This document shows positions 27,980-53,607 of a stretch of DNA of 62,622 nt, in pieces. The position numbers were made by a program, and so were the translations under genes. Each line of letters opens with the position of its first letter. The stretch's first letter is position 1. The notes beneath the pieces are model-generated. The model saw only the letters and a list, made by a program, of their open reading frames with translations, was not told where the DNA came from and searched no databases. This stretch comes from Anaerolineales bacterium (GTDB lineage Bacteria; Chloroflexota; Anaerolineae; Anaerolineales; E44-bin32): positions 1 through 62,622 of the forward strand of contig JBFFMI010000001.1 of the NCBI GenBank assembly GCA_041554155.1, given 5' to 3'.

Positions 27980-29314
27980 TTAGACGGTCACACCTTCGAA
28001 CAGTTGCTCCCGGATCGCCATGACATCACGACGCAGTGTGTCATTCGTCTCGAGTTGCGCTCCGATTTTCTCACAGCCATACAAGATCGTGGAGTGATCC
28101 CGTCCCCCGAGCAGATCGCCAATTTTTGGCAGCGAGTTTGATGTTTCCTCACGGATGAGATACATGGCCACTTGCCGGGCGAGCGCAACCGCTTTCGAGC
28201 GATCACGTCCGATTAATTGTTCCGGCTCGAGCCTGAAACGTTCCGCAACGGCCGAGATGATGTCATCGGTCGTCAGGCTTCCACGTCGCACCATAAACTC
28301 CCCAAGGGCCATATCCACCAAGGCAGGTGTCAGGGGTTGACCGCTCAAATCAGCATACGCGAGCACGCGAGTCAAGGCACCCTCAAGTTCGCGAATATTG
28401 CTTTGCACACGCTGGGCGATCAACTCCAACAGCTCGGCGTTAACTTCTCGGCCAGCCCGATCCGCTTTGAATCGCAGAATCGCCAGCCTGGTTTCGAAAT
28501 CGGGAGTCTGGATATCGGCCGTCATGCCCCACTCAAAGCGTGATCGCAGGCGTTCTTCGAGTGTGACCAGTGAGCGCTGTGGGCGATCGGACGAGATCAC
28601 CAACTGTTTATCCTGGCCGTGCAGAGTGTTGAACGTGTGGAAAAATTCTTCCTGGGTCGATTCTTTGCCGGCAATGAATTGGATATCATCGATCAACAGC
28701 ACATCTATCCTGCGATACCGCTCTCGGAAGATGGCCGTATTCTGGGATCGGATGGCGTTAACAAGATCATTGGTGAACTCTTCAGAAGACACGTAGAGCA
28801 CGTTTAATCCAGCCTCTATACAGGCATGGCCCACCGCATGGAGAAGATGCGTTTTTCCCAACCCCACGCCACCGTAAAGAAAGAGCGGGTTATACGCTTT
28901 CGCAGGGCTTTCCGCCACCGCCTGAGCAGCCGCATGGGCCAAGCGATTTCCTGCTCCAACCACAAATGTCTCAAAGGTATAGCGACGGTTTAATATGCTG
29001 GATATCGGGGCACTCGGCTCCTGTACGGGAACAGGGAGGATAGGCTCGGCGTGCTGCTCGTGCGTTGCACCTTGCCAAACAACAAAGCGGACATCGACCG
29101 TTCTTCCAAGGATCCCGGTAAGCACTCGCTTTGCGGTAGCCAGGAGCCGATCCTCCAGCCAATCACGAGCATAAGCATTACGAACCCCGATAACAAAGGT
29201 GCTGTCTTCGTACGTGAGATACTCAGCATCGCGAACCCAGGTATCAAAGGCACCGCGCGGCAATTCCATTTGCAATTGTCCAAGCGCTGCTTGCCAGTGT
29301 TGCTCTGCGTTCAT
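27980..29314 (-). CDS. dnaA: Chromosomal replication initiator protein
   Basis: NPLFLYGGVGLGKTHLL, LLIDDIQF, and a C-terminal domain IV ending DHSTILYGCEKI. AGAGGTG SD upstream. Confidence 0.95.
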   Translation of the reverse strand: MNAEQHWQAALGQLQMELPRGAFDTWVRDAEYLTYEDSTFVIGVRNAYARDWLEDRLLATAKRVLTGILGRTVDVRFVVWQGATHEQHAEPILPVPVQEPSAPISSILNRRYTFETFVVGAGNRLAHAAAQAVAESPAKAYNPLFLYGGVGLGKTHLLHAVGHACIEAGLNVLYVSSEEFTNDLVNAIRSQNTAIFRERYRRIDVLLIDDIQFIAGKESTQEEFFHTFNTLHGQDKQLVISSDRPQRSLVTLEERLRSRFEWGMTADIQTPDFETRLAILRFKADRAGREVNAELLELIAQRVQSNIRELEGALTRVLAYADLSGQPLTPALVDMALGEFMVRRGSLTTDDIISAVAERFRLEPEQLIGRDRSKAVALARQVAMYLIREETSNSLPKIGDLLGGRDHSTILYGCEKIGAQLETNDTLRRDVMAIREQLFEGVTV

Positions 29315-29900: not shown

Positions 29901-31268
29901 TTATCCAAGGGCGACGCGCAAGGCCTCCTTAAGAGACCGAACGCGCAGCAACTCGATCCCTTTCGCTTCCGCATCCTGCATCCGGGCCTGCTTGGGTATC
30001 AGCGCTCGGCGGAAGCCTAATTTCGATGCTTCAGCGAGGCGTGCCCCAATCTGCGATACCGCCCGGAGCTCCCCAGATAAACCAACTTCACCTATGAAAA
30101 GCATATCGGCTGGCGTCACTTTATCGCGGTGGGAAGAAGCCAGCGCGATAGCCATGGCCAGATCAGCGGCCGGCTCCCCGATTCTTAAGCCTCCCACAAC
30201 ATTTACGAATAAGTCCTCATCCAGCACTCGCAAACCTGCCCTGCGTGACAGCACGGCAGCGATCAACAGTAGTCGGCTCAGGTCTACACCATTGGCTGTC
30301 CGCCTTGGATTGCTATAGGAGCTCTGGCTGGTCAATCCCTGGATCTCCACTAAAAGCGGACGGGTTCCTTCCATAGTCACAGCGACTGCCGATCCGGGCG
30401 AACTGACCACGCGCTCGGCGAGCATTGCCTCGGAGGGATTGGGCACTTCCACCATCCCATTCGATTGCATCTCAAAAACACCAACCTCTGAAGTGGGGCC
30501 GAAACGGTTCTTCACAGAGCGTAAGAGGCGGTATGCGTGATAGGGGTCGCCCTCCAGGTAGAGAACAGTGTCCACGATGTGCTCTAAAACCCGCGGACCG
30601 GCGATGGATCCATCTTTGGTTACATGTCCAACCAGAAATACGGCAATCCCCGATTGCTTGGCCAAGGCCTGGAGACGGTTGGCGCATTCCCGCACTTGTG
30701 TGATCGAGCCTGGGCCCGATTCCACCTCTGGGCTATGCATGGTCTGGATCGAATCGATGATCAACAAGCGTGGCCCTAGATTCTCAACCTGAGAGATAAT
30801 TGCCTCAACATCCGTCTCAGAGAGCAGATAGAGCTGACCGGCTTCGCCATCGCCTGAATCAAGACGATTTGAACGCAATTTAATCTGACGCTCCGATTCC
30901 TCCCCAGAGACATACAGCACCGGTCCATGCCTTGCCACTTCGATGGCAGTTTGAAGCAGGAGTGTTGACTTACCGATACCCGGATCGCCGCCGATCAGAA
31001 CCACAGAACCAGGCACAATGCCGCCACCTAACACGCGGGCAAACTCGGCGATCGAAAGTACCAGACGCTCATCTGGATCGCCCACTACCTCCGCCAACCT
31101 GACCGCCCTGGGAGTCGTCCCCGAGATCGTGCGTGCTCGAGAACGACCTGATCCCACCAGCTCAGCGGTCATGCTATTCCAGGATCCACACTGGGGACAA
31201 CGCCCCAGTGGTTTTGCTGCCACTCGACCACATTGCTGGCAGATATACTGCGTTTTCGTCTTGGCCAC
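29901..31268 (-). CDS. radA: DNA repair protein RadA/Sms
   Basis: CQQCG..CPQCGSW zinc finger, GGDPGIGKSTLLLQ Walker A, a KNRFG motif and a Lon-like C-terminus. Confidence 0.95.
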   Translation of the reverse strand: MAKTKTQYICQQCGRVAAKPLGRCPQCGSWNSMTAELVGSGRSRARTISGTTPRAVRLAEVVGDPDERLVLSIAEFARVLGGGIVPGSVVLIGGDPGIGKSTLLLQTAIEVARHGPVLYVSGEESERQIKLRSNRLDSGDGEAGQLYLLSETDVEAIISQVENLGPRLLIIDSIQTMHSPEVESGPGSITQVRECANRLQALAKQSGIAVFLVGHVTKDGSIAGPRVLEHIVDTVLYLEGDPYHAYRLLRSVKNRFGPTSEVGVFEMQSNGMVEVPNPSEAMLAERVVSSPGSAVAVTMEGTRPLLVEIQGLTSQSSYSNPRRTANGVDLSRLLLIAAVLSRRAGLRVLDEDLFVNVVGGLRIGEPAADLAMAIALASSHRDKVTPADMLFIGEVGLSGELRAVSQIGARLAEASKLGFRRALIPKQARMQDAEAKGIELLRVRSLKEALRVALG

Positions 31269-31362: not shown

Positions 31363-33843
31363 CTATACTGCCGGTACTGCTTCTTGCGCCTCGTCCTCAG
31401 GTTCTTTCTTCTCAGCCTGTAGAACGATCTCATCTTCTTCGACATCGATCAAAACCTTGTCGCCGGATTTGAATCGACCAGCCAGAAGTGAGTCGGAGAG
31501 CTGATCTTCAACCCGGTTCTGGATCTCCCGTCGCAGCGGTCGCGCTCCCATTTCCGGATCGTAGCCAAGATCGGCCAATTTCAGGCGGGCTTGTTCTGAA
31601 GTGACCAGTTCGATTTCATGTTCCTTAAGACGCTCGGACACTTTCTCAATCTCAAGATCGACGATTTCAGTGATTTGCTCTTTGGTCAGGGCATGGAAGA
31701 CCATGATCGAGTCAACCCGGTTGAGAAACTCTGGCCGGAACACTTTCTTCAACGCTTCGGTTAGCTTCTTGTGCATTTCATCGTATGCCAACCGCTCCTC
31801 GGTATCCTCGTCGGCGGGGAGATCAAAGCCGAGATTGGTCTGGCGCCTGATCATGTCCGCACCCACATTCGACGTCATAACGATGATCGCATTGCGGAAA
31901 TCAACTTTACGGCCGCGTGCATCTGATAGCTGACCTTCCTCCATGATCTGGAGCAGCATGTTGTGCGCCTCAGGATGCGCCTTCTCAACCTCGTCGAATA
32001 CGATGATGGAGTAGGGTCGTCGCCTGATGGCCTCAGTGAGCTGACCGGCGTCGTCGTATCCGACATAACCCGGAGGGGCACCCACAAGCCGGCTCACCGC
32101 ATGACGTTCCATCAGCTCAGACATATCGATCTGAACCAGCGCCTCTTCCGAACCGAACATAAACTCGGCCAGGGCTTTGGTCAGCTCGGTCTTCCCAACG
32201 CCTGTAGGACCCAGGAAAATAAATGACCCGATCGGCCGGCTGGGATCTTTCAATCCCGCCCGCGAGCGTCGCACAGCCTTGGCGATAGCTGTAATCGCCT
32301 CGTCCTGGCCCACGATCCGTTCATGCAATGCTTGCTCCATATTGAGTAAGCGCTCGGATTCAGCCTCGGCCAGCGTCATGAGGGGAACACCCGTCCACAT
32401 CGAAACCACTTCGGCAATGTCTTCCTGGGTGACGCGTGTCCCGCTTTCGCTGCGATCCCAGGCGGATTGCAATTGTTCCAGTCTCTCTTCAAGTTCAGAT
32501 TCTTGATCGGCAAATGTCTGCGCCTGATCGGCTTGGTTCTGATCGACAGCCTGGTTATAGTTCTCCCGGACCTGGCGCAGCTCTTTGATGATTTCCCTGA
32601 GCGACACGGCCTCATCGCTCTTGTACATGCGCACACGCGAAGCCGATTCGTCAATCAGGTCAATTGCTTTATCAGGCAGGAAGCGATCAGTAACATACCG
32701 TGCAGAAAGATGTGCCGCTGATTCAAGTGCTTCATCGGTGATCAACAACTTATGATGTTCCTCGTACGGACGCCGAACACCGCGCAGGATATCGATGGTC
32801 TCTTCAATCGAGGGCTCTTCAACCATCACAGGTTGGAACCGTCGCTCAAGTGCTGCATCACTCTCAATATGCTTGCGATATTCATCCAACGTGGTCGCGC
32901 CAATGACCTGTAATTCCCCTCGTGAAAGCGCTGGCTTGAGGATATTAGCCGCGTCGACCGATGAGCCGGCCGAGCCCGCTCCTACCAGCATATGCACTTC
33001 ATCGATGAACAGGATGGCATCGGAGGCTTTCAGCTCATCGATCACTCGCTTCAGCCGCTCCTCAAACTGGCCGCGATACATCGTGCCCGCTACCAGGGAG
33101 CCCACATCCAGTTGAAGCACGCGCTTCCCAATCAATGGTCCCGGCGTTTCGCCTGCGATGATGCGCTGTGCCAGCCCCTCGACGATGGCTGTTTTGCCCA
33201 CACCCGGCTCCCCGATCAGGGCCGGGTTGTTTTTGGTCCTGCGGGCGAGGATCTGGATCACTCGCTCGATCTCCATCTCGCGACCAATCACTGGATCAAG
33301 CTTGTCTTCTTCCGCCAGGGTGGTCAGATCGGTTGCGAGTTGATCGACCAGGGGTGTTTTAGCAGCTGGTTCTCTCTTGCGGGCGGCGCCTTTCCGGGAA
33401 ACCCGCCGGGTGGGACTCTCCTGGAGAATACGTTTGGTCTGACGGCGAACCTGCTCTGGCGTTATCCCCAGATGCTTGAGGACATCCAGGCCGACACCTT
33501 CTGCCTGATCCACCATACCCAACAGGATGTGCTCGGTACCAATGTAATGGTGACCCATCTCTCTGGCCTGATCGATCGCATCCTGGAGAACTTTTTCCGT
33601 GGCTGGCGCCAGTTCGATACGACCGCCTGTATGGCGACCGCGTCCGGTAAGCCTCTCGACCATTTCCTTCACACGAGCAGGATCCAGCCCCAGTTCACGC
33701 AGCACCCGACCCGCCACACCACCTTCTTCCCGAATCAATCCCAGGAGAAGGTGCTCAGTGCCAATGTAATTGTGATGTAGCCTTTCCGCTTCTTCATGCG
33801 CCAGGCTCAGCACCCGCCTTGCCCTTTGAGTGAAGCGTTCCAT
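31363..33843 (-). CDS. clpC: ATP-dependent Clp protease ATP-binding subunit ClpC
   Basis: Two Clp_N repeats and two AAA+ modules ([18 protein letters not shown]). ATG at 33843 (MERFTQRA). Confidence 0.9.
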
Positions 33844-33962
33844 CTTATCGGCCACAGTCGTCCCTCCCAAACTACTACTAAGAATTTAACCCTACGCTAT
33901 CTCATTCTACCAAAGAATGGAATGCGGCTTCCTGGGATTAGGAGTATTTACCCCCATAGAAT

Positions 33963-33993
33963 AACAAAAACGGGCGCACATATGTGCGCCCGT
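33963..33993 (-). terminator. Rho-independent terminator of rpsA
   Basis: ACGGGCGCACA/TGTGCGCCCGT palindromic hairpin, followed on the minus strand by TTTTTGTT. Confidence 0.8.
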
Positions 33994-34013
33994 TCGAGAG
34001 GCAGTCTGTTTAG

Positions 34014-35729
34014 CTACTCTTTATCCTCATCCGACTCTTCTTCTGTTTGCTCGTCAGACTCAACTTGCTCGGCGTCCGCCTCCGGGACTTGCTCACCTTC
34101 AGCATCGGGCGCTTCCATAATGGCCTCAGCGTCCTCCAATTCTGTCTCGGCAGCTTCTTCATCCGCCATTTCTTCAGAAGCATCGACCGCTATGTCATCC
34201 GGCATCTCTTCTACGGCTTGCTCCACAAGCTCTACTTCATCCTCGGCGGGCTCAAGCTCGGGCTCACTGTCCGCTTCCATGTCAAGCTCAGCTTCAGCTT
34301 CGACTACCTCCACCTCGGTATCTGTCTCGCTGGTCTCTGATTCTGCACCTTCCTGTGCTTCCGGTGCCTCATCTGGCATTTCCGCTTCGATCTCTTCACT
34401 CAACGCTTCCAGCTCCGCCGGTGCGACATCGACGGCGTCTGTCTCCAGTGCTGCGTCGAAATCTTCAACCTCTGCCTCTGCTTCAGAAGCTTGGTCATCG
34501 CTGTCGACAGCTTGCATCGCTGTCTGCCAATCGAGATCAGCATATTCAGCTGAGTCGACCTGCTTCAGGCTGAGCCCGACACGCCGCTTATCGCGATCGA
34601 TCTTGATCAAACGCAATGTTACGGTCTGTGTTTCCTCAACCACTTCCTTTGGATGCTCAATCCGGCGATCAGATAATTCTGAGATATGAATCAGGCCCTC
34701 AATTTCAAAATCTTCCAGGCCCTTGATAGCCGCAAATGCACCAAATTTTGTTAGCTTCGTGATGGTGCCTTCCACCAACTGCCCTTCGGTGAAATCTGCC
34801 ATCAAATCATCCCAGGGATTCGTCTCAAGCTCACGCAGCGATAGGCTGATGCGATTACGCTCATTATCGATGTTCAAAACTTTGACTTTCACATCCTGGC
34901 CAACCTGCAGGATTTCCTTGGGATCACTGACACGCTTCCAGGAAATTTCCGAAATATGGATCAATCCATCGGCGCCACCGATATCGACAAATGCGCCAAA
35001 ATCAGCCAGGCTGATCACGGTGCCTTCGCGCACTTCTCCCGGGGTAAGATCAGCGATCAATCGTTCCTTGAGAGCATCGCGCGCCTCGCGAGCGGCTGCT
35101 TTCTCTGAGAGAATCAGCCGGTTGCGACGACGGTCGACTTCAATTACGCGTGTGACGATGGGCTCCCCAACCATCTTGCCCCAGCGTTGATCCGGGGTCT
35201 CCCCCTCTGAACGACGTCGGCGTGCAAGGCTTACCTGGGAAGCGGGGATGAAACCGCGCAGACGTCCATACTTAACAATCAAGCCGCCCTTGTTATACCC
35301 GGCGACGATGCTGTCCAGGGTTTCACGGCTTTCCATATATTTTTCAACATCGCGCCAATCTTGTTCCTCTTCAGCACGCGAGAGCGACAACAACATCGTG
35401 CCGTCACGATCTGCCGAACGAATAACATAAACCTCAATTTCTTGACCAACGTCAAGTTCGGCGCGCTCTTCTTCAGACAATTGCTCTAATTCCCTATAGG
35501 GAACCACGCCCTCAGATTTTGCACCGACATCAACGAGAACGTCGTTCTCGCTAATTCTGGCAATCGTTCCGGTCCGAATTTCGCCACGCCGTGGGGTTTC
35601 AAGTTCGTAGGCCTCTGCTTCTAGCAGGGCATCCATCGGGTGTTCCTCTCGTTGATTTTCCTCCTGGGGCGAGAGGATTTCTTCCCCAATGGCCTTCTCA
35701 TTTGCATCCATATAAGATTCGGTCTCCAA
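34014..35729 (-). CDS. rpsA: 30S ribosomal protein S1 (four S1 domains) with about 170-aa acidic C-terminal tail
   Basis: Four S1 OB-fold repeats (for example GTVISLADFGAFVDIGGADGLIHISEIS), followed by an E/D/A-rich tail. Confidence 0.9.
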   Translation of the reverse strand: METESYMDANEKAIGEEILSPQEENQREEHPMDALLEAEAYELETPRRGEIRTGTIARISENDVLVDVGAKSEGVVPYRELEQLSEEERAELDVGQEIEVYVIRSADRDGTMLLSLSRAEEEQDWRDVEKYMESRETLDSIVAGYNKGGLIVKYGRLRGFIPASQVSLARRRRSEGETPDQRWGKMVGEPIVTRVIEVDRRRNRLILSEKAAAREARDALKERLIADLTPGEVREGTVISLADFGAFVDIGGADGLIHISEISWKRVSDPKEILQVGQDVKVKVLNIDNERNRISLSLRELETNPWDDLMADFTEGQLVEGTITKLTKFGAFAAIKGLEDFEIEGLIHISELSDRRIEHPKEVVEETQTVTLRLIKIDRDKRRVGLSLKQVDSAEYADLDWQTAMQAVDSDDQASEAEAEVEDFDAALETDAVDVAPAELEALSEEIEAEMPDEAPEAQEGAESETSETDTEVEVVEAEAELDMEADSEPELEPAEDEVELVEQAVEEMPDDIAVDASEEMADEEAAETELEDAEAIMEAPDAEGEQVPEADAEQVESDEQTEEESDEDKE

Positions 35730-35832
35730 TTCGTAGATAGGTTGGCATTATAAAGGGGATGACCCTTAATGTAAACGGTGCCTGTTTTCGGTACTATTCA
35801 ATAGGGTATAATCCCGCCGGAGACCTCTTTCA

Positions 35833-36945
35833 ATGGCTATCGTATATCCTTTCACCGCGATTGTCGGCCAAGAGCGCATGCGCCGAGCGCTGGTTTTGAA
35901 CGCAATTAACCCTCGAATCGGTGGGGTTTTGATCCGAGGGGAGCGCGGTACCGCCAAATCTACAGCTGCCCGCGCACTTTCCGCCCTCTTACCCGATGTC
36001 GATGTGGTCGTCGACTGCCGCTTCCGCTGTGACCCCAATCTACCACTCAGCTTGTGTACGGAATGTCGAGAGCGCATTGAGCTCGGAAACGAATTGCCGG
36101 TTATCACACAACCAACCTCTTTTGTCGACCTTCCTGTCTCGGCTACTGAAGACCGGGTCGTGGGCACGCTGGATATCGAACGAGCGATAAAAGAGGGTGA
36201 GCGGCACTTCGAACCCGGGATCCTGGCCTCGGCAAATCGCGGTTTGTTATATATCGACGAAGTCAACCTCTTGGACGACCATGTCGTTGATGTGCTGCTG
36301 GACTCGGCCGCGCTGGGCATGAACATTGTCGAGCGCGAGGGCATCTCCTTTAGCCACCCTTCTCGCTACATCCTGGTTGGCACCATGAATCCTGAAGAAG
36401 GCGATCTCAGGCCACAACTTCTGGATCGCTTCGCACTTTCTGTCCAAATTCGAGGGTTGCTCGATCCACAGGATCGTGTGGCGATCATGGAACGCAACCT
36501 CGAATTTGAAGCGAATCCTGAACAGTTCCGCCAAACATGGCTAGAGCGGGAGCAGCAGTTATCCAAGGAGATCCATGCTGCCCGCAAGCTGGTTGATTCG
36601 GTCAAGTACAACAAACGCGATCTGCTCGCCATTGCGGCGCTCACGTCTTCCATGCAAGTTGACGGGCACCGTGCCGATCTGGTCATCTTGAAAGCCGCAA
36701 GAGCGCATGCCGCTTTTGAGGGAAGAACACAGATCAATCAACGCGATATCGCCCTGGCAGCAGAGCTGGCACTCCCTCACAGGCTTCGGCGCGGCCCCTT
36801 CCAGCAAGTCGATATCAACATTGAGGAACTACAATCAAGGATTGAACAAATTCAGGCAGATGTAAATCAAAGCAGCGATAGCCTTGATGTCCCCTCCGAA
36901 GAAGAAAGCTCTGAAACTAAAAAAAAAGACCTAAACCCGTCCTAG
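35833..36945 (+). CDS. ChlI/BchI-like AAA+ chelatase ATPase subunit
   Basis: YPFTAIVGQERMRRAL, Walker A GERGTAKST, Walker B LLYIDEVNLLDD, MNPEEGDLRPQLLDRF. Confidence 0.85.
   Translation: MAIVYPFTAIVGQERMRRALVLNAINPRIGGVLIRGERGTAKSTAARALSALLPDVDVVVDCRFRCDPNLPLSLCTECRERIELGNELPVITQPTSFVDLPVSATEDRVVGTLDIERAIKEGERHFEPGILASANRGLLYIDEVNLLDDHVVDVLLDSAALGMNIVEREGISFSHPSRYILVGTMNPEEGDLRPQLLDRFALSVQIRGLLDPQDRVAIMERNLEFEANPEQFRQTWLEREQQLSKEIHAARKLVDSVKYNKRDLLAIAALTSSMQVDGHRADLVILKAARAHAAFEGRTQINQRDIALAAELALPHRLRRGPFQQVDINIEELQSRIEQIQADVNQSSDSLDVPSEEESSETKKKDLNPS
36919..36927 (+). other. A9 homopolymer forming an A_AAA_AAA heptamer in the ChlI-like frame; candidate -1 recoding or slippage site, or an indel-prone tract
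   Basis: ACT AAA AAA AAA GAC lies 16 nt before the ChlI-like stop. The -1 frame opens at the run and continues into the VWA gene. Confidence 0.4.
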
Positions 36946-36980
36946 CAGATGAAGAAGCGGATGCTTCTGAAGAACGCGAT

Positions 36981-37910
36981 ATGGCGGAACCCCAACGTCA
37001 ACCCACGCCTGATAGCCTCTCCGCACGTTGGTGGGAAGGGGGCGACAAAGTTAAGGTCGGGAGCTCATTTGTCCCCCGCCGGCTTGAAGGAAATTTCGAT
37101 CGTTTGTCCCGGCGCCAGAGCGGACGCCGGACTCGCTCCCGTACCGAACTGAAACGAGGCCGCTATTTCCAGGCCCGGCCCGCGCACAGGAAAACAACCG
37201 ATATCGCGTTCGACGCTACGATCCGGGCAGCTGCACCCCATCAAATCAACCGGGCTGAGCAGCGCCAGCGTGTGTCATTTGCCATCATGCCTTCGGACCT
37301 GCATCGCAAGGTACGCGTGCGCAAGGCGCCTAATCTCATTCTCTTCGTTGTGGATGCCTCCTGGTCAATGGCTGTCGCCGAGCGGATGTCGGCAACCAAA
37401 GGGGCGATATTGTCCTTGCTCACGGATGCCTACCAGCGTCGCGATCGGGTGGGTATGGTGGTCTTTCAAAAAGACCGGGCCATCAGTATCCTGCCCCCTA
37501 CCAACTCAGTGCAGCTCGCACAACGTGCCCTGGCTGATATACCGGTCGGTGGCAAGACCCCTCTATCGGCCGGTCTTAGTCTGGCGCTTGAGATCGTTCG
37601 CAAAGAAAAAATACTTCACCCAGATGTGCTGCCATTAATGATTATTCTGACCGATGGGGCAGGCAATGTCTCGATGGGCGATTTAGCTCCCCAGGAAGAA
37701 GCTTTATTCATGGCCAACCGCATTCGCAAGGAAGAGATCAACTCAGTGGTGATCAATATGGAACATGCGGCCTTCGACCAGGGCCTAGCGCAAAAACTGG
37801 CTGATGAGCTCGGCGGAATATGCTACACCCTGCATGAGCTCAAAGCAGAACATCTATACCAGGCTGTCCGCCATGAGCTCAGCGAAAGCGCGGCCTCACT
37901 TCACGGATAG
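36981..37910 (+). CDS. ChlD-like C-terminal half: basic region plus VWA (MIDAS) domain
   Basis: RGRY...DIAFDATIRAAAPHQ, then ILFVVDASWSM (DxSxS MIDAS). The SD before ATG 36981 is weak. The frame is open upstream back to 36921. Confidence 0.8.
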   Translation: MAEPQRQPTPDSLSARWWEGGDKVKVGSSFVPRRLEGNFDRLSRRQSGRRTRSRTELKRGRYFQARPAHRKTTDIAFDATIRAAAPHQINRAEQRQRVSFAIMPSDLHRKVRVRKAPNLILFVVDASWSMAVAERMSATKGAILSLLTDAYQRRDRVGMVVFQKDRAISILPPTNSVQLAQRALADIPVGGKTPLSAGLSLALEIVRKEKILHPDVLPLMIILTDGAGNVSMGDLAPQEEALFMANRIRKEEINSVVINMEHAAFDQGLAQKLADELGGICYTLHELKAEHLYQAVRHELSESAASLHG

Positions 37911-52788: not shown

Positions 52789-53607
52789 TCACTCCGTTCG
52801 ATTATAGTCAGTGGGTTTTCCAGTTCGGGTGAATGGGACGAAACGGACCCCCCCCAGGCTTGATGTGCTGATAGCCCCATCCTCGTCTTTGTTTATTCGC
52901 CAGAGTTCCTGGATCCCACCGATCGGCCCCACCGGGATGACCATCACACCACCCTTGGCCAGTTGCTCTACCAGTGTTTGGGGGACATGATCTGGAGCAG
53001 CTGTGACGATGATTGCATCGAATGGGGCTTGATCCGACCACCCATAATATCCATCATCATTGCGTAGCTGGATCTCTGTATAATCCAGGCGCCGCAGTCT
53101 TTCCGAGGCTTCCTGCGCCAATTCGCTAATGATTTCAACAGTAAAAACATCAACTCCCAACTCCGCCAGGATTGCCGCCTGATATCCAGAACCCGTTCCA
53201 ATTTCCAACACTTTCTCACCCGGCGATAGATCCAACTCCTGAGTCATCAAGGCAACAATAAAGGGTTGGGAAATGGTTTGGCCGTACCCAATTGGCAGGG
53301 CATGATTTGCATACGCCATAGATTTGTGCTCTTGCTGCACAAATTCATGTCGAGGCACTCGTCCCATCACTTCGAGCACAGCTTGATCCTCGATTCCATA
53401 GGCCTTGATAGCGAAGTCGATCATGTTCTGGCGCGCAGTTTCGAAATAGATCTCCGTTGCCTGCGTGTCAGTATCTTGGACGAGTGAACTTGTCGATCGA
53501 GGATCAGCTTGACCAACCTCTATCGGGGGGGGCGCACAACCTGCGAGGGTAAAGATACCCAAGATAATCAAAGGGGTGGAAAGGTAGCGTGCCATAGCAA
53601 CCTCCAC
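52789..53607 (-). CDS. pcm: Protein-L-isoaspartate O-methyltransferase with N-terminal lipoprotein signal
   Basis: GYGQTISQPFIVALM, VLEIGTGSGYQAAILAEL and IIVTAA. The N-terminus is LIILGIFTLAGCAPPP. Confidence 0.8.
   Translation of the reverse strand: MEVAMARYLSTPLIILGIFTLAGCAPPPIEVGQADPRSTSSLVQDTDTQATEIYFETARQNMIDFAIKAYGIEDQAVLEVMGRVPRHEFVQQEHKSMAYANHALPIGYGQTISQPFIVALMTQELDLSPGEKVLEIGTGSGYQAAILAELGVDVFTVEIISELAQEASERLRRLDYTEIQLRNDDGYYGWSDQAPFDAIIVTAAPDHVPQTLVEQLAKGGVMVIPVGPIGGIQELWRINKDEDGAISTSSLGGVRFVPFTRTGKPTDYNRTE

Follow-up and report, generated by a model that had tools for sequence, protein, structure and literature searches.

Magnesium-chelatase genes that carry a -1 frameshift, known as frameshifted chlD (fs-chlD) genes, have been described before. 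Antonov et al. (2013) reported 23 magnesium-chelatase genes with a -1 frameshift that had been annotated as two adjacent genes of ~1 kb. The taxa with frameshifted genes were Pseudomonas, Burkholderia, Delftia, Herpetosiphon, Methanocaldococcus and Methanococcus, and in-frame fused homologs were found in Chloroflexus aggregans and Rubrobacter xylanophilus (PMC3711429). In E. coli reporters, A11, A9 and A7 runs gave 63 %, 40 % and 10 % frameshift product, respectively (PMC3711429), and according to the review of Atkins et al. 2016 (PMC5009743), strong purifying selection acts on the A_AAA_AAR site. Kuznetsov, Milenkin and Antonov (2022) explicitly name fs-chlD genes of Anaerolineaceae and state that their signals "usually" include a downstream RNA structure. 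They also point to anaerobes, several Anaerolineaceae among them, that have neither the large chelatase subunit nor the pathways for chlorophyll and B12, and in which the function of the I/D pair is a puzzle (PMC9227772, which cites Antonov 2020, MBE 37:2268, for fs-chlD). The phenomenon is already known, also in this bacterial group. Here, we analyze a locus of this kind in a 62,622-nt stretch of DNA (54 % GC, hereafter the window) from an uncultured species of Anaerolineales that does not appear by name in these publications. The locus consists of an open reading frame (ORF) for a ChlI-like AAA+ ATPase (ORF1), a run of nine adenines (A9) and an ORF for a VWA module (ORF2). Judged from sequence comparison, these two "genes" are very probably one chelatase-type gene that yields a short and a long product through a -1 change of frame on the A9 run.

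The window locus shares with the Anaerolineaceae fs-chlD genes (PMC9227772) the taxonomic group, the order of a ChlI-like AAA+ part followed by a VWA part, and the -1 split at an AT-rich slippery site, whereas its A9 site is not accompanied by significant RNA structure. Two ORFs of ~1 kb, the -1 relation and a poly-A run (A7, A9 or A11) are also found in the genes collected in 2013; the window differs from that cluster in taxon, and no cobN or chlH was seen in it. Canonical magnesium chelatase (BchI/ChlI and BchD/ChlD; structures 1g8p, 6l8d, 8osf and 2x31) agrees with the window locus in ChlD domain order, ChlI fold and Walker motifs, but its I and D are separate paralogs, while in the window the AAA+ module would be identical in both products and the scores remain under the equivalog cutoffs.

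A further parallel is dnaX, likewise an AAA+ gene from which a -1 change on poly-A gives two products, one short and one long, with the ATPase module in common. The E. coli gene uses ribosomal -1 frameshifting on A_AAA_AAG, the Thermus thermophilus gene uses transcriptional slippage on A9, and two-ORF dnaX genes need recoding for tau (PMC3711429). Runs of An with n above 7 are considered a transcriptional-realignment motif, for which the A9 of T. thermophilus dnaX is the cited example (PMC3711429). As in two-ORF dnaX, the long product of the window locus is the one that would require recoding. In E. coli dnaX, in contrast, the zero frame gives the long product, an arrangement met among the relatives studied here only in four rare loci (L081-L084). 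The window locus is not a member of the DnaX family itself, as the dnaX NCBIfam models reach only E = 0.007-0.009 over the Walker A stretch.

Layout of the locus and domain content of its predicted products

All coordinates are those of the whole 62,622-nt stretch, read on the + strand. ORF1 (35833..36945, +, 370 aa) is preceded by a GGAG Shine-Dalgarno-like element (35819..35822, +) 10 nt 5' of its ATG. It ends in an acidic tail (...PSEEESSETKKKDLNPS) and its 3' end reads ...ACT AAA AAA AAA GAC CTA AAC CCG TCC TAG, so that the stop lies 15 nt past the run. The A9 run (36919..36927, +) is read as AAA AAA AAA in frame 0 and contains an in-phase A_AAA_AAA heptamer; as a slippery run, it is supported by the sequence and by its conservation in orthologs. 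ORF2 (36981..37910, +, 309 aa) is offset by 2 relative to ORF1, i.e. in the -1 frame, with an open overlap of 22 nt. Past a TAA at 36918-36920, the -1 frame reads KKRPKPVLADEEADASEERD-M(36981) and remains open until the stop at 37908-37910. Because the -1 frame is closed by this TAA and frame 0 by the TAG at 36943-36945, a shift is confined to a recoding interval of 28 nt (36918..36945, +), within which the A9 run is the only slippery sequence. From this reading of the frames, the -1-frame residues of the linker that leads into ORF2 can be reached only after a frame shift within this interval. The linker itself (36927..36980, +; RPKPVLADEEADASEERD) bears a coding signature and resembles the ChlD linker in being acidic and rich in Pro/Gln. 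A fusion formed by the -1 shift is predicted to contain the junction peptide ...SSETKKKRPKPVLADEEADASEER... and the tryptic fragment PKPVLADEEADASEER. Inspection of the sequence 5' of ATG 36981 did not reveal a GGAG-type Shine-Dalgarno (SD) element, unlike for ORF1, and neither a promoter-like nor a terminator-like site was found at the junction between the ORFs in a scan of the window sequence. The positions of the ORFs and the run, the ending of ORF1 and the -1 reading that an initial annotation of this DNA had given were all borne out, as was its remark that ATG 36981 lacks a strong SD.

ORF1 is matched by the Pfam families AAA_lid_2, Mg_chelatase and AAA_5. Its Walker A (GERGTAKST) and Walker B (LLYIDEV) motifs are intact and the AAA lid domain is present. 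Among the NCBIfam models, it covers positions 1-354 of the 641 positions of TIGR02442 (508 bits) and scores 425.2 bits against TIGR02030 (BchI/ChlI), under the equivalog cutoff of 466.95. The ChlI/BchI chains 8osf, 6l8d and 1g8p from the PDB align with ORF1 residues 3-341. ORF2 displays a conserved N-terminal EPxxQ...WWEGG and a metal ion-dependent adhesion site (MIDAS) motif, DASWS; it is matched by Pfam VWA_2 and VWA and covers positions 385-640 of TIGR02442 (257 bits), in agreement with a C-terminal ChlD-like module. The folds of the two ORFs are fixed, at the level of sequence, by these matches to the structures of ChlI and BchD, as the BchD VWA chain 2x31_A aligns with residues 501-640 of the conceptual fusion. 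This fusion of 692 aa was constructed by a -1 shift on the last AAA of the run (junction ...SSETKKK/RPKPVLADEE...). It aligns in one stretch with positions 1-640 of 641 of TIGR02442 ("putative cobaltochelatase"), with a score of 775.7 bits, whereas the score against TIGR02031 (BchD/ChlD) is 431.1 bits, under the cutoff of 499.55. TIGR02442 describes a single chain; in the window, this chain is interrupted and would need the -1 shift. The initial annotation had pointed to the ChlD order of AAA+ domain, acidic/Pro-rich linker and VWA domain, and the fusion displays the same order.

Precomputed annotations place the Pfam family PF26791 ("AAPxQ") on all VWA halves, where it corresponds to AEPxxQ...WWEGG (36981-37050 in the window). 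In a Pfam-A scan of the -1 linker with the N-terminus of ORF2, PF26791 gave no match, even at E ≤ 10.

The proposed expression of the locus is as follows. Standard decoding would produce the 370-aa ChlI-like ATPase as the zero-frame short product. In a fraction of the expression events, the frame would change by -1 on the run, either through a ribosome that slips back on A_AAA_AAA or through an RNA polymerase that adds one A and thereby produces an A10 mRNA. Both routes would lead to the same 692-aa ChlD-like protein with AAA+ domain, acidic/Pro-rich linker and VWA/MIDAS domain, so that only RNA-level data can separate them. The locus would in this way supply the "small" (I-like) and "medium" (D-like) subunits of a putative chelatase-type AAA+ complex in a ratio given by the slippage efficiency. 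That the run actually yields the fusion we infer from work on homologs, in which the A9 cassette gave the 40 % product in E. coli mentioned above.

Conservation of the junction and translation of the linker

The junction was compared among 80 orthologous loci from Anaerolineales/Chloroflexota (one genome per species scanned, 65-79 % protein identity); counts of 81 refer to these loci plus the window. The labels of the metagenome-assembled genomes (MAGs) include Longilinea, Levilinea, Leptolinea, Pelolinea, Brevefilum, Anaerolinea and Ardenticatenaceae. A poly-A run is present at the junction in 80/81 loci, as A7 (nine loci), A9 (51 loci) or A10 (20 loci) and never as A8. All nine A7 runs stand in the phase xxA AAA AAA G, giving an in-frame A_AAA_AAA, and 17 of the 20 A10 runs stand in the phase xAA AAA AAA AAG, ending in the classical A_AAA_AAG heptamer. 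The A9 runs are spread over all three phases (12/30/9). The run flanks are conserved at only 31-66 % per position, with 35-50 % as a second figure for them, and the linker around the run is otherwise unconserved. The sole locus without a poly-A run (L033) reads ACC CCC CCA AAA GTG TAA at the junction (C7A4), with an in-phase C_CCA_AAA. This junction is located ~60 nt before the ORF1 stop, and its C7 run is a possible polymerase slippage site. In another ortholog (L002), an in-frame TAA occurs ~97 nt 5' of the A10 run, inside the conserved ...LQxRIEQIQ...; this locus may be a pseudogene or contain an assembly error.

The frame relation is conserved along with the run. In 78/81 loci, the VWA part lies in the -1 frame with an open frame that overlaps the end of ORF1; in some orthologs, this overlap is 10-13 nt, essentially just the run. 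The three exceptions (L003, L034 and L067) have a +1 relation, and all are "MFD" MAGs with very long contigs and A9 runs, in which the +1 relation likely reflects homopolymer miscalls in long-read assemblies. Frame 0 stops at most 25 nt past the run in 97 % of the loci (median 4 nt) and the median distance from the run to the +1-frame stop is 15 nt, whereas none of the loci has a -1 frame that is open for less than 940 nt. For a dozen loci, the window among them, the first A's of the run form part of a TAA that closes the -1 frame. Because of this TAA at the start of the run and the frame-0 stop a few codons later, the shift is possible in these loci only on the run itself. The question of the initial annotation whether orthologs keep the A run and the -1 relation is answered positively by the counts above.

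Across 529 kb of the 80 orthologous loci, A or T runs of at least nine occur at the junctions only, with A9 or A10 at 71 of the 80 junctions. Within the window, A9 is the sole A or T run longer than 7. Nevertheless, 0.61 such runs are expected by chance in the window and 39 of 100 shuffles hold at least one, which makes A9 by itself unremarkable; a chance test on the window alone was discarded as support, and the significance of the run derives from the ortholog comparison.

The linker between run and VWA domain was examined for signs of translation. Among 77 loci, it contains no stop in the -1 frame, compared to 96 and 145 in the two remaining frames. It occurs in seven different lengths among the loci and the -1 register is kept in all of them. 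Substitutions were counted between related loci in 13 disjoint pairs, and their distribution over positions 1/2/3 of the -1-frame codons is 42/19/131 (p = 2e-24). When restricted to the stretch past the ORF1 stop and before the position of the window Met, the part that a two-gene model would make intergenic, the distribution is 16/9/43 (p = 7e-7). This pattern indicates that the supposed intergenic stretch is translated in the -1 frame. Since the linker is coding in the -1 frame and accessible in many loci only from ORF1 through the run, we conclude from these comparisons that the long product is an ORF1-VWA fusion.

These observations bear directly on the alternative of two separate genes, which the initial annotation had listed among its options. 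Under this alternative, the locus would express a ChlI-like ATPase and a free VWA protein from ATG 36981, either independently or by termination-reinitiation, and the A run would merely encode a conserved Lys-Lys-Lys. An in-frame ATG is indeed available in the window 36 nt past the ORF1 stop, every public annotation calls two genes, and Antonov et al. 2013 report downstream initiation beside frameshifting in some constructs of their screen (PMC3711429). However, ATG 36981 lacks an SD and a start of the VWA part is not conserved: in the nearest relatives (L001, L002 and L004), S, K or D stands at the position of the window Met, which is not conserved even at 78 % identity, and in 60 of the 80 loci the stretch from the run to the WW[ED]GG motif located 31-37 codons downstream contains no ATG. 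The best 120 homologs of the VWA half were called at many lengths between 267 and 324 aa, with the exception of four in-frame chains, as expected when there is no real start to be called. A conserved KKK would moreover tolerate synonymous AAG codons, yet the run is unbroken in 80/81 loci. A -1 frame that is open back to the run everywhere, a coding pattern 5' of the Met position, a -1 relation held through seven linker lengths and a family model (TIGR02442) that describes a single chain equally contradict two genes, and we regard this alternative as improbable.

It was also considered whether the split reflects an artefact or variation at the DNA level, namely a homopolymer error hiding a true A10, a recent inactivating frameshift (pseudogene) or phase-variable switching. 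Homopolymers are prone to errors and indels, and the three long-read-style MAGs have +1 in place of -1. In addition, four short metagenome contigs of relatives from the Joint Genome Institute (JGI), L081-L084, carry AAA lid, linker and VWA in one frame with the run still kept. L081 has A9 with an extra C, L082 has A10 with an extra base, and L083 and L084 have A10 in phase 0, exactly the A9 type plus one A; L084 corresponds to the window arrangement with one A more. In L081 and L082, a stop is reached 5-16 nt past the run in either alternative frame, the same layout as in E. coli dnaX, where the long product is made by standard decoding and the short one by slippage. The four contigs may be real variants, errors or RNA-derived contigs. 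An origin of L083 and L084 from metatranscriptomes would be direct evidence of A10 RNA; the sample identifiers were looked up in the literature with this in mind, and no mention of them was found.

Against a DNA-level cause, A9 is exact in the window and in five other, independent assemblies of its species (two JGI metagenomes, three NCBI MAGs, with 0-1 mismatch in 460 nt), and heterogeneity of the run length at the DNA level was not seen among these six assemblies. The exact ORF1 protein is present on six contigs and the exact ORF2 protein on 8-11 contigs. The best 120 ORF1 homologs (75-91 % identity, many independent metagenomes and MAGs, labelled Anaerolineales or Anaerolineaceae where labelled) are all 365-425 aa, i.e. 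all 120 stop at ~370 aa. The split with its -1 relation recurs in 78/81 species-level loci at 65-79 % identity, and purifying selection acts on both halves. It is unlikely that the split is caused by a sequencing or assembly error, as suggested in the initial annotation. Phase variation, its other suggestion, predicts mixed states, while in-frame versions make up only ~3 % of the homolog clusters listed and are single low-coverage contigs; the agreement of different species in run length and frame relation makes phase variation unlikely. The expectation that an A10 would mean a simple fused gene proved too simple, as 20 orthologs with A10 are still split with the -1 relation. Taken as a whole, a DNA-level origin of the split appears highly improbable.

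A few points weigh against reading the locus as a single recoded gene. Ribosomal -1 frameshifting is classically stimulated by a downstream structure, and none of significance is present at the A9 site of the window. The 775.7 bits of the fusion fall 3.7 bits short of the curated TIGR02442 cutoff of 779.45. Unlike most of its relatives, the window has the in-frame ATG at 36981, where some extra initiation may give a free VWA protein. The counts over the 80 loci are not phylogenetically independent. Finally, no cobN/chlH large-subunit gene occurs in the 62.6-kb window, where the largest ORF is 970 aa, and the role as chelatase subunits is putative. The reading favored by the initial annotation, with an I-like product of ~370 aa and a D-like product of ~690 aa from a -1 change on the A run, is nonetheless supported by all comparative tests and by the fs-chlD literature: the downstream ORF lies in the -1 frame with an overlap, an in-phase A_AAA_AAA is present, site and frame are conserved, and the ChlI-like AAA+ part and the C-terminal VWA part are encoded by two consecutive ORFs of one locus.

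Downstream structure and the level of the proposed slippage

The initial annotation had drawn attention to a small hairpin (AGAAGC-GGAT-GCTTCT) downstream of the run. This hairpin exists at 36952..36967 (+), but it is not a credible stimulator and is probably non-functional: it starts 24 nt past the run, its z-score is -1.05 and it is missing in the nearest relative (L001). It was rejected as a candidate on these grounds. The 91-nt region at the window site as a whole shows no significant fold (z = -1.05 to -1.2), with 33 of 200 shuffles folding as well. A downstream RNA structure, a usual but not a defining trait of fs-chlD genes (PMC9227772), is thus absent from the window, whereas it is present in the nine A7 orthologs.

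These A7 loci (L006, L007, L017, L023, L029, L031, L059, L069 and L077) belong to about four clades with differing downstream sequences. Within 2-45 nt past the run, all nine sites have a strong GC-rich hairpin that starts 2-9 nt past the run, with a mean minimum free energy (MFE) of -19.5 kcal/mol and a mean z of -2.1. The stems differ in sequence between clades, with a 10-bp stem CTCTGGCGAG/CTCGCCAGAG in L007 and CGCCGG/CCGGCG in L029, L031 and L059. Such a hairpin is not found at the A9 and A10 sites, with mean MFE values of -11.8 and -12.3 kcal/mol and z of -0.5 and -0.3, respectively. The difference in fold between the A7 sites and the rest is significant without phylogenetic correction (Mann-Whitney p = 7e-6), and the downstream GC content is alike (0.61 for A7 versus 0.57-0.58 for A9/A10). 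RNAalifold on the nine A7 sites yielded no alignable consensus (-0.96 kcal/mol), as the stems differ in sequence and position; because this consensus fold failed, the A7 hairpins are supported by single-sequence energies only. The combination of in-phase heptamer and predicted hairpin at the A7 sites is the classical signature of ribosomal -1 frameshifting.

For the window, this raises the question whether the ribosome or the RNA polymerase slips. If the polymerase is mainly responsible, slippage on the A9 template would produce A10 mRNAs in which the fusion is a single open frame, as in T. thermophilus dnaX. Several observations are in line with this. The runs of 9-10 A at 71 of the 80 junctions are longer than a heptamer requires and within the range of polymerase slippage, the A9/A10 sites lack the hairpin seen at all A7 sites, and A9 occurs in all three phases. 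Frames 0 and +1 both close quickly, so that A8 and A9 transcripts would give short products, and in the E. coli assays the yield rose with run length, although those assays could not separate the two levels. On the other hand, each A9/A10 run also holds an in-phase A_AAA_AAR, by which ribosomal slippage is equally allowed, the A7 orthologs indicate that the family uses ribosomal frameshifting in some lineages, and ribosomal frameshifting is also the term used in the published studies of this family. We judge a predominantly transcriptional mechanism to have slightly less than an even chance, and assign roughly half of the probability each to ribosome and RNA polymerase, or to a mixture of both. 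Because the A9 site of the window has no stimulatory hairpin, a transcriptional contribution is plausible, and the chances that it is substantial are about even.

A bolder scenario is that the site has switched mechanism within one family: the A7 lineages would use ribosomal frameshifting with a hairpin, whereas the A9/A10 lineages would have dropped the hairpin and rely largely on slippage by RNA polymerase, with an I/D complex that then acts without a large chelatase subunit. We consider this scenario rather unlikely. If it were true, the ratio of I to D subunits would be set transcriptionally in most Anaerolineales, and an I/D complex acting without the large subunit would imply a function other than tetrapyrrole metalation.

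Annotation, significance and gene neighbourhood

If the locus is read as a single recoded gene, the two annotated "genes" should be replaced by one recoded gene with two products. Public pipelines call halves or fragments in 240/240 of the homolog clusters listed. The locus would then be a clean natural example of a subunit stoichiometry that is set by homopolymer slippage, in a lineage where the I/D pair of AAA+ and VWA proteins apparently works without a large chelatase subunit, and the set of 80 species provides a comparative system for when ribosomal and when transcriptional slippage is used. Compared to the published fs-chlD genes, our results are modestly new in the breadth of 80 species, the coding linker, the dichotomy between A7 with hairpin and A9/A10, the absence of A8, and the run that is kept in the in-frame relatives. 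The mechanistic split and the role of a chelatase-type I/D complex without large subunit are the parts worth pursuing.

The gene neighbourhood was inspected as a possible clue to function. A row of four genes on the - strand is located directly upstream of ORF1, namely dnaA (27980-29314, -), a radA/sms-like gene (29901-31268, -), clpC (31363-33870, -) and, divergent to ORF1, a gene (34014-35729, -) whose S1-domain protein product ends in a very long acidic tail at the C-terminus. Downstream in the window follow a DUF302 gene, an RNase-H-like gene and two-component regulators. The S1 protein is found upstream in 44/80 loci, and the genes on the downstream side are variable. Genes for tetrapyrrole or cobalamin synthesis were not present among the neighbours examined; the neighbourhood was set aside as uninformative about function. 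The context of the window fits the published picture of an "orphan I/D" pair. The acidic tail of the S1 protein creates a spurious antisense ORF of 297 aa that is Ser-rich (33796-34689). The longest G/C runs in the window are a C8 at 52848-52855 and a G8 at 53525-53532.

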